Below, piece by piece: positions 56,280 to 64,000 of a DNA stretch of 64,000 bases. Made by a program: the position numbers and the translations under genes. Every line of letters starts with the position of its first letter. Position 1 is the stretch's first letter. The DNA comes from Eledone cirrhosa (taxonomy: Eukaryota). The notes beneath the pieces are model-generated. The model was given only the letters and a program-made list of their open reading frames with translations. It was not told the DNA's origin and ran no database searches. The stretch lies in assembly GCA_964016885.1 (NCBI GenBank), contig OZ024742.1:365800001-365864000 (forward strand). Direction: 5' to 3'.

Positions 56280-56341
<62 letters not shown>
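56280..56341. repeat. (TA)n microsatellite
   Basis: About 30 perfect TA units. Confidence 0.98.
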
Positions 56342-56345
<4 letters not shown>

Positions 56346-56538
56346 GAAACACACAGATACATGCGGACACACACATATATACATGAATGCATCCGCACCC
56401 AACTGTGAGTTAAGGGTGCCAACTTCACCGATGTTGCTCAACATCGGTGAAGTTGGCACCCTTAACTCACAGTTGGGTGCGGATGCATTCATGTATATAT
56501 GTGTGTGTCCGCATGTATCTGTGTGTTTCTTAATATAT
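56337..56538. mobile_element. Perfect fold-back palindrome (100-bp arms, 2-nt CT loop), MITE-like
   Basis: 56337-56436 is the exact reverse complement of 56439-56538, checked base by base. It lies at the end of a (TA)n tract. The MITE interpretation is inference. Confidence 0.75.
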
Positions 56539-56950
56539 TAATAACTCCCTCTGGTCGAACAATCTTTGAAGTGTGGGGACAACTGGAAAGCTTCCATTAC
56601 TCATACTTCTCGCCTTCTTCACTACCTCTTCTACGGCCTCGATATGAATACCCCCTCCGCCTCCGTGGTATTCTCTTCGTGGTTATAAGAGGCTTAGCTC
56701 TGTTTCTCGACCGTTATATCGCGTGACTATCTCCCCCTCCGCCTTTTGGGATTCTTTCTCACGTCGTGTAGACGCGTTCTTGAGACTAGTAAAATGAGGT
56801 ATCCTCTTGATAAGTCGGCAGACCTCGCAAGAACTCTATATCTTTGATATATTGTTTTTGTTTATGCCACGAAACTACGTAGTCGAGGAATTTAGGAACA
56901 GTTTAGGTATGATACATTTTATTACTAATTATATCTAAATGTTTCTTCTC
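56539..56950 (+). mobile_element. Non-coding Penelope-like/retrozyme-like fragment carrying a hammerhead ribozyme
   Basis: CpG-containing island between microsatellites with an internal direct repeat CCCCCTCCGCCT (56651, 56733) and a hammerhead at 56802-56889. Boundaries are approximate. Confidence 0.5.
56802..56889 (+). ncRNA. Type I hammerhead ribozyme, U3-A8 core variant, palindromic stem III
   Basis: Stem I TCCTC/GAGGA; core TTGATAA (CTGATGA with compensatory C3U/G8A); stem II GT(c)GGCA/TGCCAC extended by GCAAGAAC/GTTTTTGT and TATATC-TTT-GATATA; GAAA at 56871; stem III ACTACGTAGT (self-complementary); GTC triplet with predicted cut after 56884. Confidence 0.8.
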
Positions 56951-57004: not shown

Positions 57005-57269
57005 GTGTGTAGATATGTATGTTTTTTTGTGTGTATATATGATTTAGTCGTGTTTAGATGTGTTTGTATAAGTGTAAGTGTATGTATGTTCGAGTATATA
57101 TGCATGTATGTATGTTTGTGTATATATGCATGTATGTGTATATGAGTGTATATATGCTCGTGTATGTATGTATGTTTGCGTATAAATGTATATCTGTATG
57201 TTAGTCTGTTGTATATATGAGTGTGTATATATGTATATATATGTGTATGTTAGTCTGTTGTATATATGA

Positions 57270-57329
<60 letters not shown>

Positions 57330-57370
57330 GTTAGTCTGTTGTATATATGAGTGTATATATATATATATAT
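56951..57370. repeat. Compound (TA)n/(TG)n/(TATG)n microsatellite with three embedded copies of TATGTTAGTCTGTTGTATATATGAGTGT
   Basis: Directly visible. Embedded copies at about 57197, 57247 and 57327, with a fourth at about 57850. Confidence 0.9.
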
Positions 57371-57840
57371 CACGATAAATTAACGGAGGCATAGGCCGTC
57401 GTTATTCCCTGTAAATAATGTGCTCAAAGGAGAAGAGATCCTGAGCTCTTTAAAATATAATATGTTGAGAAGGTAACACACCAGAGAGAGATATATAGTG
57501 CGTTATCAATAATACAGGGAAAAAAACCACCAGTGTATGGAATCTATAACCTATGAAAGGCAGACTATAGACACGATAATTAAAAATATAAATTAAAGCG
57601 TAAATAAATACCTCTATAACTATATAACACACGTACAAATCCAAAGATATGTTTCACCAAAAATTTGTTGAAAGAAATGGTCTAGTCTCGGTTCATCAGC
57701 GTGTGTAAGGCCATACAATTCAGACAACATTAAGAGAATTTTAAAATTGACTGTCCAGCTACACGTGGGAGAGAGAAGTCACAGCGTGTTTAAGGGCAGT
57801 GAACCAGTGGCCTCTGAGAGACGAACTGCTAGAAAGGGCA
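57371..57840 (-). mobile_element. 470-bp hammerhead-bearing insert (Penelope-like/retrozyme-like) flanked by ~50-bp direct repeats
   Basis: Complex sequence bounded by near-identical TATATGTTAGTCTGTTGTATATATGAGTGTAT(AT)n at about 57320-57370 and 57841-57895 (TSD-like). It contains a canonical hammerhead on the minus strand and no recognisable protein. Confidence 0.6.
57627..57706 (-). ncRNA. Type I hammerhead ribozyme, canonical core
   Basis: Minus strand reads ACACACG (stem I) - CTGATGA - ACCGAGA...TTTTGGT (stem II) - GAAA - CATATCTTTGGATTTG (stem III, one T-T mismatch) - TA - CGTGTGT (stem I'). GTA triplet, predicted cut between 57634 and 57633. Confidence 0.85.
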
Positions 57841-57880
57841 ATATGTGTATATGTTAGTCTGTTGTATATATGAGTGTATG

Positions 57881-57911
<31 letters not shown>

Positions 57912-58039
57912 AAGAATGTTTTCGAAACAGCGAGCGGGTTTGAAATTATTATAAATGTAAGCTATCGCCGTATTTTGACTAAAGAAATTAAAGAAATTAT
58001 TTAGCCTGGTAGGGGTGTTAAGAACCCTCGGAGAAATGG

Positions 58040-58044
58040 AAAAA
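58040..58044 (-). terminator. Candidate Pol III terminator (T5) downstream of the tRNA-like unit
   Basis: TTTTT on the minus strand about 10 nt after the cloverleaf 3' end. Confidence 0.45.
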
Positions 58045-58053
58045 GATGAGTAT

Positions 58054-58125
58054 TGACGTACATGGGAGTCGAACCCACATCTTTGGTTATCCAGACCACT
58101 GTGCTACCATTTACACGAACACATG
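58054..58125 (-). pseudogene. tRNA-like cloverleaf (tRNA-derived Pol III unit or pseudogene; nominal anticodon GGA)
   Basis: Acceptor CATGTGT/GTACGTC (6 of 7 pairs including G-U), D-arm GTGT-AAATGGTA-GCAC, anticodon arm TGGT-CTGGATA-ACCA, T-arm GTGGG-TTCGACT-CCCAT (B box GGTTCGACTCC). The short variable loop and T37 are atypical for a true tRNA-Ser. Confidence 0.7.
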
Positions 58126-58215
58126 TGTTGGTGTAAATGGTAGGGTTCTTAACACCCCTACCAGGCTAAATAATTTCTTTAATTTCTTTAGTCAAAATAC
58201 GGCGATAGCTTACAT

Positions 58216-58220
<5 letters not shown>

Positions 58221-58295
<75 letters not shown>

Positions 58296-58930: not shown

Positions 58931-59117
58931 AAGGGCGGTGGATTGGCAGTATCGGTAGAGGGTCGGACGCCATGCTTTCCAGCATAGTTACGTCCCTTTA
59001 CGATCTGAGTACAAATCCCGCCGAGGTTGACTTTGCCTTTCATCCTTACGGGGTCGATAAAATAAAGTACCAGTAATGCACTGGGTAATTGCTGGCCTTG
59101 TGCCTAAAGTAGAAACA
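58931..59117 (+). mobile_element. tRNA-derived SINE copy 1 with 14-bp target-site duplication
   Basis: A-box TGGCAGTATCGG and B-box-like GAGTACAAATCCC. Highly similar to the copy at 60071-60259. ATTATATTACTACT occurs on both sides (58917-58930 and 59118-59131). Confidence 0.85.
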
Positions 59118-59265: not shown

Positions 59266-59295
59266 ATTCACGAGCATACTCTAGAATTATATATA

Positions 59296-59364
<69 letters not shown>

Positions 59365-59422
59365 TATATACACACACACACACACACACATATATATATC
59401 ATTCTAGAGTATGCTCGTGAAT
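59266..59422. repeat. Inverted repeat (22-bp unique arms) enclosing mirror-arranged (TG)n-(TA)n-(CA)n
   Basis: ATTCACGAGCATACTCTAGAAT (59266-59287) versus ATTCTAGAGTATGCTCGTGAAT (59401-59422). The interior microsatellites are also complementary. Confidence 0.85.
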
Positions 59423-59877: not shown

Positions 59878-60051
59878 GGTTTCTGACTTAGGCACACGGC
59901 CAAATATTTTTAGGGGAAGGGAAAGTCGATGAAATTGACCCCAGTGTGTGACTTTATTTTATGGACTCTGTAAGGATGAAAGGTAAAGCTAACCTCAGAA
60001 TGTAAAGAGCCATAACTCTGCCGTGAAGCATGGTGTTGTTATACTGCCAAA
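59878..60051 (-). mobile_element. Degenerate SINE copy 3 (same or related family)
   Basis: Shares TAAGGATGAAAG, ACTTTATTTTAT, AAGCATGG and ATACTGCCAA blocks with copy 2. Flanked by (AAT)n at 59848-59877 and about 60050-60070. Confidence 0.7.
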
Positions 60052-60070
60052 TAATAATAATAATAATAAT

Positions 60071-60259
60071 TGTTTCTACTTTTGGCACAAGGCCAGCAAT
60101 TACTCAGTGTATTACTGGTACTTTATTTTATCGACCCCGTAAGGATGAAAAGCAAAGTTAACCTCGGCGGGATTTGAAGTCAGACCATAAAAGGCCGTAA
60201 CTCTTTGCTGCAAAGCATGGCGTCCGACCCTCTACTGATACTGCCAATCCACCGCCCTT
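60071..60259 (-). mobile_element. tRNA-derived SINE copy 2
   Basis: Reverse complement starts AAGGGCGGTGGATTGGCAGTATC like copy 1, has B-box-like GACTTCAAATCCC, and ends CCTTGTGCCAAAAGTAGAAACA followed by (ATT)n. Confidence 0.85.
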
Positions 60260-60314: not shown

Positions 60315-63300
60315 TTTCTTTATTAACCACAAGGGTGTACATAAAGTAGACATTAAGGACAGTGCAGGACAATACAGGACGGTACAAATGGGCATTTCTG
60401 CGTGTAAAAAAACAAAAAAAACAGAGGGTGTAACAAAAATAACAATGAAAAATTCCCCAATAGGGGGGAGACTTCGGAGGGACATTTGTGGAGAAAGCCC
60501 AGTAAAAAGCCACAATGACCCTGACCACCAAGGCAAGTGCCCTCTCCGAGTTTTCCACCTTTAATTTACAGATATATACTCAGAGTAGGCCCATTCACTC
60601 GGGCCATTCTTGCTTCTCTCACCCATCTTTCAACAAAATGCTGGGAAAAGAGCACTTCCCTCTCTACTCTGATTTTCCTTTTCAAATGAAATTTGAAAAA
60701 GTCAATCAGAGCATCACCGAAGAGGTAAGTGCTCGTCTTCAGCGCTTTCAAACGTGTCCACCATACTATCTCTTTCGCCATGGCCACCAGAGAGATAAAA
60801 ACTGCCTGCTCTTCCCGGCTAAAGGAGGAGGGCGGGGTAATCCTCACGATGGACTCAGATGATAGCCGGATCCGTCCTAAACGCGACAGCAGGTGTTCGA
60901 CATAAACCCACAAGTCAGCAATTTTCGGACACTGGACGAGTGCGTGCAGGACGGTTTCGTCGCCCTGCGCGCATCTCGGACATGCCCGGCTGACGGCACC
61001 TCCATGCCTGTAGAGTTTATCCCGAACTGGCAAGGCTCCTCGGTAGCACTGCCAGGCCAGAGATTTCTGGAAGTTGTCCATAGGCCCTGGCCCGAAAGTT
61101 CTTCCGAAGAGATTGGCTAGTTGATTTTTGTCGACGCCTAGAGTTTCCCCAAGTACGTCGTCGCTCTTCCCCTCCACTAATCCTCTATAGAACGCCGAGG
61201 TGGAGTTTCCACCGATCACATTGCCCGATTGGTCGAGGGCTGTGAGCGCCTGAAGAGATTCCAGTCTCCAGGCGCTCCCTCTCGGTCTTCGCTTGACCCA
61301 GGACTGCAGCTCCGTCAAGGAAACGAGCTGGGGAAATAAGTGTCTAGCAAACGGCGACCACACCTGATCACAGTCGAGGAAGAGGTGAAGATGTCGTAGC
61401 CTGAGCGCGTGTCTGCTCATCATCAGCCACGGCATGCCCAGCCCTCCACGTAGCGGGTGTGACAGCAGATGGACCGCCTGACCATCGGAGCGCGTCCCTT
61501 CCACAAAAAGCTCCAGCGCAGTCAGGCGAGGCTTAGGACAAGGTACGACGGTCAGGCGGTAGCAGATAACAGACGACGCGATGTACGCGTTAGCCACCTC
61601 CGCTCGACCTTTCAGGGATAGCTTCCTCTCCGCCCATTTCTGGGTGAGAGAAGCCACCCTGCTCGTCACCTCGTCCCAGTTTTTGTCCGTCTGGAGGTCC
61701 GGACCGAACCAGACCCCTAGCAATTTAACCGGTCCGTCCGTCCAGCGTCCGACAACGCTGTTGGACGGCATGGACCTGCCTCTCCAGGTGCCGAGCTGCA
61801 GGCCCACTGACTTTTCCTGGTTGATCATTGCTCCTGTCACCGCTTCGTATTCTCTTAGTGTAGTGCCGATCGCCTCGATGTGTTTGGCGTTCGACACCAC
61901 TACGGTGACATCGTACGCATATGCTGACACGGATCTTCCGCATCCTAGTTCGCGCGGGACGCCCCTCAACGTCTCCAGTTTGTGCAGTAATGGCTCGAGA
62001 GTCAATACGTACAAGAGGGACGAGAGGGGACATCCTTGGCGGACCGAGCGCATGATGTTGAACGGTTCCGACAGGTGACCGTTCACTCTCACCACAGAGC
62101 AGATGTCGCTGTGCATGGCAGCGATCGAGCCTCTGAAGACGGGCCCAAAGCCAGCCGCCCTCAGGACTGCCGCTAGGTAACGATGGTCGACCCTATCGAA
62201 AGCTTTCGACTGATCTAAATTGATCAAGGACCCACCCGTGCCAGGTTCCCTAGCTACCCTCTCTACGATGTATCGCATGAGGTGGAGGTTGTCGTGGATG
62301 GTTCTGTCGGGAATGGCACATGTCTGCGCCTCTCCCACCAGACCACCAACGACAAGCGCCAACCTCTTTGCTAGCACCTTGGCCAAAATCTTGAACTCTG
62401 TGTTTAGCAGAGTTATGGGCCGGAAATGATCTATGTTATCCCCCTTGTTCGGATCCTTTCTCAGCAGTCCCACCGCTCCTCGGCTCACAGAACTGGGAAT
62501 TCTCCCGTTCTGTTGCCAGTTGCAGTAGACGTCCGCCAAGAGGCCTCCGAACAAGTCTGGCATCTGTACGTAAAGTTCATAGGGCAGACCATCCAAACCA
62601 GGCGATTTACCCCTTGTGCAGCCAGTCATTGTCTCCCTTACTTCAGCGGCTGTTATCGGCTTTTCGCAACACTTCGCCTCAGTGGCCGAGAGCCGCGGCA
62701 GTCCGTCGAGGTAGACACTAAAGTCCATCCCTCGACCCGGCCCACCGCTGCCCCCGAACAGCTGAGCGAAGTGTCGCTGAAAAGCTTCACACATTTGCCC
62801 GGGATCGAGTATCATGCGCCCATCGTGGTCCACCAAAGACCGGATCGTGGTTTGTTGCCACGACGCGCCTCCGCCACTCGGGCCCATTGAACAGCTTTCG
62901 TCCCCTCGTGTCTGAGAGCACGTACCCTTGCTCTGACAACGCAGCCTTCGTGCTTTGCATTGAAGAATTGGTCAAGGGCCAATTTCGCCGCAAGCACGTC
63001 GGTCGCAATGCCTTTGCTAAGCGCCTCGTCTAATTTTCTAACTAGTTCTCCCTCTGCTCTATTTTTCTCTATTGCTAAAGCCTTACTAAACCTAATGGAT
63101 TCTATTCTAATCGCTCTTTTCAGAGCAAACCACCACTTGTTGTTGACGATGGCCCCCGTCAACGCCCGCTTAACTAGTTCGCTAATCCGGTCTCTGTAGG
63201 CCTTGCGCGCTGGTAAGGACGCGTTTAGCTTCCAGTAGCCGGGTCCTCGTCTATGAAGCCTATCTAAGTCAAGCACACAGATCACGAATTTGTGGTCCGT

Positions 63301-64000
63301 GTAGCTGATTATCTTGAATTGTGGACAGCCTATGCTACACCTATCTATTTCCCTACAAAATACTCTATCTAGATATGATCTGGATGACGCTATGCGATTT
63401 GTCCAAGTCCACATTGGCACATTCGGGAAATCCAATCGGTACCTGTGAGACAGTTCAAAACGCCTGAGCAGGTTGGTAAGGCTCTTGCACCCTCCACCCC
63501 TATCCGCTAATCCCACACAGTCCCAGCGTGCATCTAAGATCCCGTTCCAGTCGCCCACTAACACTAAAGAGCGGGACGTTCCAAGAAAGGTCTCCAGACG
63601 CCGGAAGAAATCAGGCCGCCCTGCTCCTGTCGGGGCATAGACGGCCACTAGCCTGAAAGCTTGCCCGTCTCCGCTGGTCACGTCCAGCACCACCAGCTTA
63701 TCCTCTGGGTCCAGGAGGATGGCTCGTATGGCGAGATCCAAACCTCTCCGAAAAAGCACAGCAACTCCTCCCCCCAATCCAGGACGGCTGGGAGATGCGT
63801 ACACATCGTAGCCGCCGAAGATCGGTGCGAAGGCCCGTGCTTCGGAGATTCTGGTCTGGCCACTACATCTATGTTTAGTGACCTGAGGTCGTTGAGCAGG
63901 TGACCCTGCTTCCATGACGACCCCAAGCCACGCGCATTTATGCTGCCTATTCTGAGTGAGGTCATGTTTAAAATAGAGTGGAAAAGATGGGAAAGACCAC
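60313..64000 (-). mobile_element. Non-LTR retrotransposon, Tx1/L1 clade (ORF2 and 3' UTR; 5' part outside the window)
   Basis: GC-richer segment encoding APE endonuclease, reverse transcriptase and C-terminal Cys/His motifs. The 3' UTR has AATAAA (60319-60324, minus strand) and abuts (ATT)n. Confidence 0.93.
60566..63965 (-). pseudogene. Disrupted LINE ORF2 (APE endonuclease - reverse transcriptase - zinc-finger-like C terminus)
   Basis: APE motifs SINARG, AVYAP, LVGDWNG, TWTN, YLDRVF, TDH. RT motifs KSPGLDGLP, FRPITLLNTEFKILAK, LDQSKAFDRVDH, VRQGCPLS, YAYD (for YADD), LLGVWFG. C-terminal CPRC..ETVLHALVQC. Frameshifts at about 63860 and 62850, plus a compensating pair at about 61512/61461. 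Confidence 0.92.

Follow-up and report, generated by a model that had tools for sequence, protein, structure and literature searches.

A type I hammerhead motif in a 5'-truncated, non-coding repeat of Eledone cirrhosa: a possible Penelope-mobilised, retrozyme-like element

Toward the right-hand end of a 64,000-nt stretch of Eledone cirrhosa DNA (the window), a short segment carrying a hammerhead motif lies between two closely similar TA/TG-rich flanks, which raises the question of what kind of element this is and how it came to be there. The initial annotation had read it as a non-autonomous ribozyme-carrying retroelement, either a Penelope terminal repeat or a retrozyme monomer, inserted in a TA/TG-rich target. 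To evaluate this reading we combined motif descriptors, fold calculations, and protein, Pfam and Rfam searches with a comparison of the segment against public sequencing runs. The hammerhead motif proved to be real, complete and beyond chance, and the insert turned out to be one member of a repeat family that is abundant, diverged and also found under a second species label. The explanation that we prefer, and that we judge to have an even chance of being correct, is that a retrozyme-like, non-autonomous unit of ~540 nt, mobilised by Penelope enzymes, left the insert as a 5'-truncated copy. The coordinates of the features are given in Table 1.

Table 1. Features of the window and of the hammerhead-bearing insert (positions counted from the first nucleotide of the window)
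Feature	Positions	Strand	Basis or remark
Satellite, 25-28-nt unit	1-54436		~2000 copies, 89% matches
Minisatellite units 1 and 2	57197-57224, 57246-57273	plus	Outside the supposed duplication
Left flank: minisatellite unit 3 and TA run	57318-57370	plus	51/53 identical to 57841-57893
Insert: non-coding repeat, 5'-truncated copy of an abundant family	57371-57840	minus	Family sequence aligned across; common loose end behind 57840
Weak 3'-terminal hairpin	57381-57404	minus	10 nt from element end; z = -0.45, not above chance
Predicted three-way-junction domain 3' of the ribozyme	57405-57521	minus	Fold z = -3.80; 0/200 shuffles as good
Hammerhead ribozyme motif, type I	57627-57706	minus	Strict descriptor and fold calculation
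Right flank: minisatellite unit 4 and TA run	57841-57893	plus	Starts exactly where the family sequence ends
L1/Tx1-like LINE	60566-64000	minus	Endonuclease, RT and zf-RVT domains; frameshift split near 62900

The motif has the core of a type I hammerhead (CUGANGA, GAAA and an NUH cleavage triplet), with CUGAUGA at 57699-57693, GAAA at 57655-57652 and a GUA triplet at 57636-57634 on the minus strand. Helix I comprises 7 perfect bp (57700-57706 with 57627-57633, minus strand), helix II comprises 7 bp (57692-57686 with 57662-57656) closed by a 23-nt loop, and helix III comprises 6 bp with a single U.U mismatch and a 4-nt loop; all three helices are thus present (7 + 7 + 6 bp), with the open ends in helix I, as is typical of type I. 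The motif, its strand and its 7-bp stem I agree with what had been annotated, and the GUA triplet leads to the same predicted cut, 57634|57633. A strict descriptor requiring at least 7 bp in helix I matched none of 5,000 dinucleotide shuffles of the insert; when the 9.6 kb of the window outside the satellite were shuffled, 2 of 300 shuffles matched. Self-cleavage of the motif is a prediction; of 9 predicted retrozyme dimers in one study, 8 failed to cleave (bioRxiv 10.64898/2026.07.22.740005).

In five sequence contexts at 37 C, the hammerhead fold lies 0.7-0.8 kcal/mol above the minimum free energy and makes up ~1% of the ensemble; pairing probabilities, in a model that omits tertiary contacts, are 0.63-0.92 for helix I and 0.01-0.03 on average for helix II. 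In the window copy, helix II begins with an A-U pair, in contrast to the G10.1-C11.1 pair, which is described as highly conserved in hammerheads, though not invariant (PMC4209133). Reading by eye at a loose end behind 57647 identified a diverged subfamily with a C at 11.1, in which GAAA is kept and a G.U replaces the U.U of the window copy. At E <= 10, Rfam returned no hammerhead family for this motif or for the other hammerhead-like motif of the window (see below), and its search of the insert recovered no hammerhead, twister, HDV-like or SECIS family; the long loop II may be the cause of the miss, and since Rfam misses the family, standard annotation would overlook it. The unusual features of the hammerhead are its long, non-palindromic helix III, its long loop II and the 37-nt spacing between the core halves. 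Exact-pattern scans gave no matches in metagenome contigs (two scans) and none in genome contigs, and the one match in viral contigs (L001) was discarded as a 19-nt chance hit.

We then considered the distribution of the insert among 17 listed public runs; no RNA run is listed as containing it, which has no bearing on expression. It is wholly or partly contained in 13 of them, and the four with half of its words or more carry either a source-like species label (A) or a second one (B). Family counts were drawn from X1, X4, X5 and X15, leaving aside X6 (share, 0.26), X7 (0.21) and X8-X13 (small shares); X1 is possibly the source sample and is not independent, whereas X15 consists of raw reads from a different sample and study. 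The insert is matched by 1,789 contigs of X1, with identities spread over 80-100% (494, 530, 505 and 260 contigs in four bands), and by 2,425 raw reads of X15, 86% of the aligned reads continuing into unlike sequence. These counts rule out a single-copy sequence, which the initial annotation had named among the conditions that would refute it; at this locus the window has one copy of the family. Organism B contributes a 419-nt contig (X4) that departs from 57522-57840 by 4 differences and 1 gap (~98.7% identity). Summed X1 depth, which is not a copy number, reaches 1.8e5 inside the insert versus 24-27 on the right flank; the copies of the family probably number in the thousands.

Variation within the family, read from 40 listed substitution rows out of 125 and 12 listed indel rows out of 19 (unphased differences), offers possible signs of selection on the hammerhead. 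Eight of the 40 listed substitution rows fall in it, 5 in loop II and 3 in outer helix II, and none is listed for the 51 nt that comprise helix I, helix III, the core and the inner part of helix II. Against selection, the eight are probably traces of a single subfamily, and indels are listed both in helix I, where 39 of 544 X15 reads have 2 extra letters behind 57631, and in helix II.

The insert, annotated at 470 bp, is exactly 470 nt long (G+C, 37%). Its right end is independently fixed by the loose ends of the family at 57840, which are common to all four runs (522 X15 reads, 19 X1 contigs, where the listed loose ends of X1 have 14-19 contigs each), while its left end falls outside the coverage of the run comparison, which skipped 57335-57379. 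Other copies run past 57840 with common sequence, for no fewer than 30 letters and in the X4 contig for as many as 99, none of which returns to window sequence; the window copy is therefore 5'-truncated with respect to the ribozyme strand. The same continuation rules out the 470 nt as a whole monomer or a whole terminal repeat; the original proposal is supported as to a multi-copy, non-coding, ribozyme-bearing repeat in a TA/TG target and has to be amended as to its completeness. By eye, 57419-57427 recurs in the continuation as a 9-nt repeat, and 57812-57818 has a 7-nt complement there, which suggests that structured non-coding RNA continues past 57840.

The length of the complete unit is hinted at by a single contig of X5 (contig 22; 420 nt, depth 14.5), which runs from 57840 back to 57405 with at most ~105 letters between, as in a head-to-tail unit of no more than ~540 nt. 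With this joint and the 99 unmatched X4 letters, a unit of about 535-540 nt is consistent. The contig comes from a diverged subfamily (12 differences in 91 letters, the intervening letters being unread), was joined at a likeness setting for which the tool warns of repeat-made joints, and displays the head-to-tail joint without two hammerheads; the joint is listed in none of the three other runs compared, and two truncated autonomous copies in tandem would yield an identical one. The library type of X5 is not on record, and the looping contig was not taken as circular RNA. The 12 listed joints include 6 that switch strand (1 being an internal hairpin) and 1 that runs backward, mostly in single contigs; inverted 5'-truncated copies are a described Penelope trait (PMC8557442). 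At three further X5 loose ends (57455, 57566 and 57619) the sequence is a TA-rich run, which would follow if TA repeats also adjoin other members of the family.

Multiple searches bear out the description of the insert as non-coding. Its longest open frame has 67 codons (57653-57453), a length equalled in 436 of 1,000 shuffles; a protein search with this frame yielded 26 candidates, none at E <= 10, and Pfam scans of 4 insert frames yielded nothing near the cut-off, only E > 0.1. In the window copy, neither an ORF remnant (207 nt upstream and 263 nt downstream of the cut) nor a linked RT or GIY-YIG frame was found, and no Penelope ORF is seen linked to the family in this copy and the first 30 loose letters. 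The insert sequence likewise has no tRNA head, poly(A) or short tandem tail. The term "non-autonomous" depends on the one X5 contig. Retrozymes likewise combine a type I hammerhead with a non-coding, G+C-poor unit. An intron-like GT-AG candidate of 61 nt (57611-57551, minus strand) is at chance level, with 279 of 2,000 shuffles giving one; a short spliceosomal intron near the ribozyme is a trait of some Penelope-like families.

Folded as a linear molecule (470 of ~540 nt), the insert is modestly structured (z = -1.63; 5 of 100 shuffles fold equally well). From its predicted fold, the three-way-junction domain is a candidate cis signal for a mobilising protein. The 12 differences listed within it comprise 6 at unpaired sites, 3 that keep the pair alone, 2 at partner sites that preserve pairing only if they co-occur, and 1 that breaks a pair; because 41 of 78 transitions at paired sites keep the pair anyway, this pattern supports the domain only weakly.

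The flanks had been interpreted as a target duplication of ~50 bp. Their 53-nt match is evident, with a longest common exact run of 34 nt, but it is indistinguishable from insertion between existing units of a minisatellite. The 28-nt unit is present four times (57197, 57246, 57327 and 57850), and units 2 and 3 are identical at 52/53 positions in the same register, which is better than the flank pair (51/53); hence, the flank match is not proof of duplication. Insertion between existing units would leave a spacer of 25 nt, within the range of the other unit spacers (21 and 53 nt), and we therefore rejected the duplication as proof of insertion. The start of the right flank at the family end does fit a target duplication, and the odds that the 53-nt match is one are about even. 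Duplications are often indiscernible for microsatellite-targeting Penelope elements (Craig et al., PMC8557442), rotifer Penelope copies have duplications of 8-10 bp (PMC3846280), and those of retrozymes are given as "larger than 4 bp" (PMC7229834). The combination of 5' truncation with a (TA)n target, as seen in the loose end common to 4/4 runs, the TA-rich X5 ends and the TA/TG flanks, is of the Penelope-like kind.

On the preferred reading, copies arranged head to tail, or transcribed by read-through, would give rise to minus-strand transcripts, which the hammerhead would trim to unit length. The RT/GIY-YIG protein of an autonomous Penelope-like element, which would supply the enzymes for pasting, would bind the structured domain 3' of the ribozyme and nick AT-rich DNA, with cDNA synthesis beginning near 57371; synthesis would have halted at 57840, and the unit would have been pasted into the TA-rich minisatellite. 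The window copy would not release unit-length RNA by itself, because it has one hammerhead and lacks ~70 nt. We infer this insertion model by analogy with the Penelope element PAc, which cleaves AT-rich DNA, depends on RNA lying 3' of the hammerhead and begins at a stem-loop in that region (PMC11167929); the PAc hammerhead cleaved only with protein and was dispensable for insertion in vitro (PMC11167929).

The closest competitor to this reading, possible yet clearly short of an even chance, is that the insert derives from an autonomous Penelope-like retrotransposon, of which the 3' end (a pseudo-LTR or a long 3' UTR) is present as a heavily 5'-truncated solo copy. Most Penelope insertions are indeed 5'-truncated and have one terminal repeat (bioRxiv 10.64898/2026.07.22.740005, PMC8557442); Octopus has Penelope, Hydra and Naiad families, with a (TA)n preference listed for the Hydra and Naiad ones (PMC13282606, PMC8557442); and Octopus Naiads have ~1 kb of non-coding 3' sequence (by eye) and "half-core" hammerheads whose core halves lie 35-50 nt apart, compared with 37 nt here (PMC8557442). 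The failure of the 99 loose X4 letters to re-enter window sequence also suits a longer element, whereas the return of the X5 contig to 57405 within ~105 letters and the lack of an ORF remnant in the 207 nt and 263 nt on the two sides of the cut speak for a short one. In addition, none of 4 window motifs was matched in the published Naiad/Hydra consensus supplement, although a match could be masked there by a line break, and three Octopus Naiads have 3' ends that appear unrelated by eye (PMC8557442). As animal retrozymes have been argued to derive from Penelope ends (bioRxiv 10.64898/2026.07.22.740005), these two leading readings would be stages of one process. By analogy, the element would behave like a retrozyme or a solo pseudo-LTR; neither a two-hammerhead array nor a linked ORF was seen that would assign it to one of these classes.

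More distant explanations dispense with Penelope or with the ribozyme. Movement by another route, either as a SINE-like partner of a LINE or as a satellite spread by recombination between TA/TG arrays, would accommodate the long duplication-like flank, which fits LINE-type integration better than the 8-10 bp of rotifer Penelope (PMC3846280), and an L1/Tx1-like LINE does lie 2.7 kb away. We consider this improbable: the insert shows no similarity to the LINE, it has none of the tRNA head, poly(A) or short tandem tail mentioned above, and animal type I hammerheads are tied to Penelope ends and retrozymes (PMC4209133, PMC7229834, bioRxiv 10.64898/2026.07.22.740005). That the family is real while its hammerhead is a chance or long-dead motif without a role is very improbable. 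The missing Rfam hammerhead match, the A-U pair at 10.1-11.1 and the weakness of helix II in the fold ensemble would be explained in this way, but not the absence of the motif from all 5,000 shuffles or the sparing of the core and of helices I and III by the listed substitutions.

The surroundings of the insert are themselves rich in repeats, the last 9.6 kb of the window being a patchwork of microsatellites and repeats that ends in the LINE, the best named relative of whose RT is from Argonauta hians (72% identity), which points to an octopod as the likely host. The "second, dissimilar" hammerhead implied by the initial annotation has its counterpart in a hammerhead-like motif at ~56802-56888 (plus strand), without blastn similarity to the insert; lacking such similarity, the two were rejected as parts of one inverted element. 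This motif has a U3-A8 core, a variant described for Schistosoma Penelope elements (PMC4209133), together with a 5-bp helix I, a long structured loop II and a palindromic helix III of the dimer type (fold z = -2.91), and it is likely another Penelope-type end. The segment that contains it is adjoined on the left by a near-perfect inverted repeat (56332-56543; 105 nt, 2 nt between the arms). A perfect inverted repeat (57947-58223; 82 nt) encloses a tRNA-like sequence (58054-58125, minus strand), which ARAGORN calls Ser(GGA) but which is without the long variable arm and is probably a SINE head or a pseudogene; another inverted repeat (59267-59422) has TA/CA-rich arms. Three related SINE-like stretches (58985-59110, 59925-60010 and 60110-60190) presumably resemble an octopus SINE.

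Among known systems, retrozymes and Penelope hammerheads have both been recorded in molluscs (PMC7229834), and 235 hammerhead-1 matches are given for the giant squid genome (PMC6962438). In the literature searched we found no description of the present family, and the main text of an Octopus vulgaris repeat paper has no use of "ribozyme" or "hammerhead" (PMC13282606). The family is thus apparently an undescribed octopod member of a class known across animals. Its diverged copies are a usable set for testing monomer cleavage by hammerheads with a long loop and a long helix III, and for asking whether retrozymes arise from Penelope ends outside vertebrates.

With metazoan non-LTR retrozymes (Cervera and de la Pena 2020, PMC7229834; Li, Clavereau and Pollet 2026, bioRxiv 10.64898/2026.07.22.740005), the insert shares a type I hammerhead, the lack of coding capacity, a G+C below 50%, many dispersed monomers and a long duplication-like flank; mussel retrozymes have about 5000 copies and units of 350-390 bp (PMC7229834). 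It differs from them in being a single truncated copy whose tandem form is suggested by one contig only, in its 23-nt loop II and 6-bp helix III, and apparently in its modest overall fold, unlike the highly self-paired retrozyme circles. The inferred unit of ~540 nt is above one published range of 150-450 bp (PMC7229834) and inside another of 51-972 bp (bioRxiv 10.64898/2026.07.22.740005).

Like the Penelope pseudo-LTRs (Cervera and de la Pena 2014, PMC4209133; PAc, Frangieh et al. 2024, PMC11167929), the insert has a hammerhead with a 7-bp helix II, placed some hundreds of nt from the 3' end, 5' truncation, an AT-rich target and structured RNA 3' of the ribozyme; unlike Penelope elements, it has no attached ORF in the window copy. 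Metazoan Penelope hammerheads have a helix I of 4-5 bp, an extra base at 9/10.1, the G10.1-C11.1 pair and a minimal palindromic helix III that requires a dimer (PMC4209133). In contrast, the hammerhead of the insert, with its 7-bp helix I, A-U at 10.1-11.1 and long non-palindromic helix III, is closer to the monomer-competent fungal and protist forms. The Octopus Naiads (Craig et al. 2021, PMC8557442) have in common with it the (TA)n target and a long non-coding 3' region, although kinship was not found in the motif comparison with their consensus supplement, and Naiads are described there as being without canonical hammerheads, whereas the motif of the insert has all three helices. Two bolder analogies, both of which we hold to be unlikely, would place the family either among octopod retrozymes of ~540 nt that exist in thousands of copies, with a hammerhead that works as a monomer and abundant circular RNA, or in the 3' UTR of an undescribed Naiad; if the latter were true, the Naiad "half-core" motifs would be full hammerheads with a long loop II.
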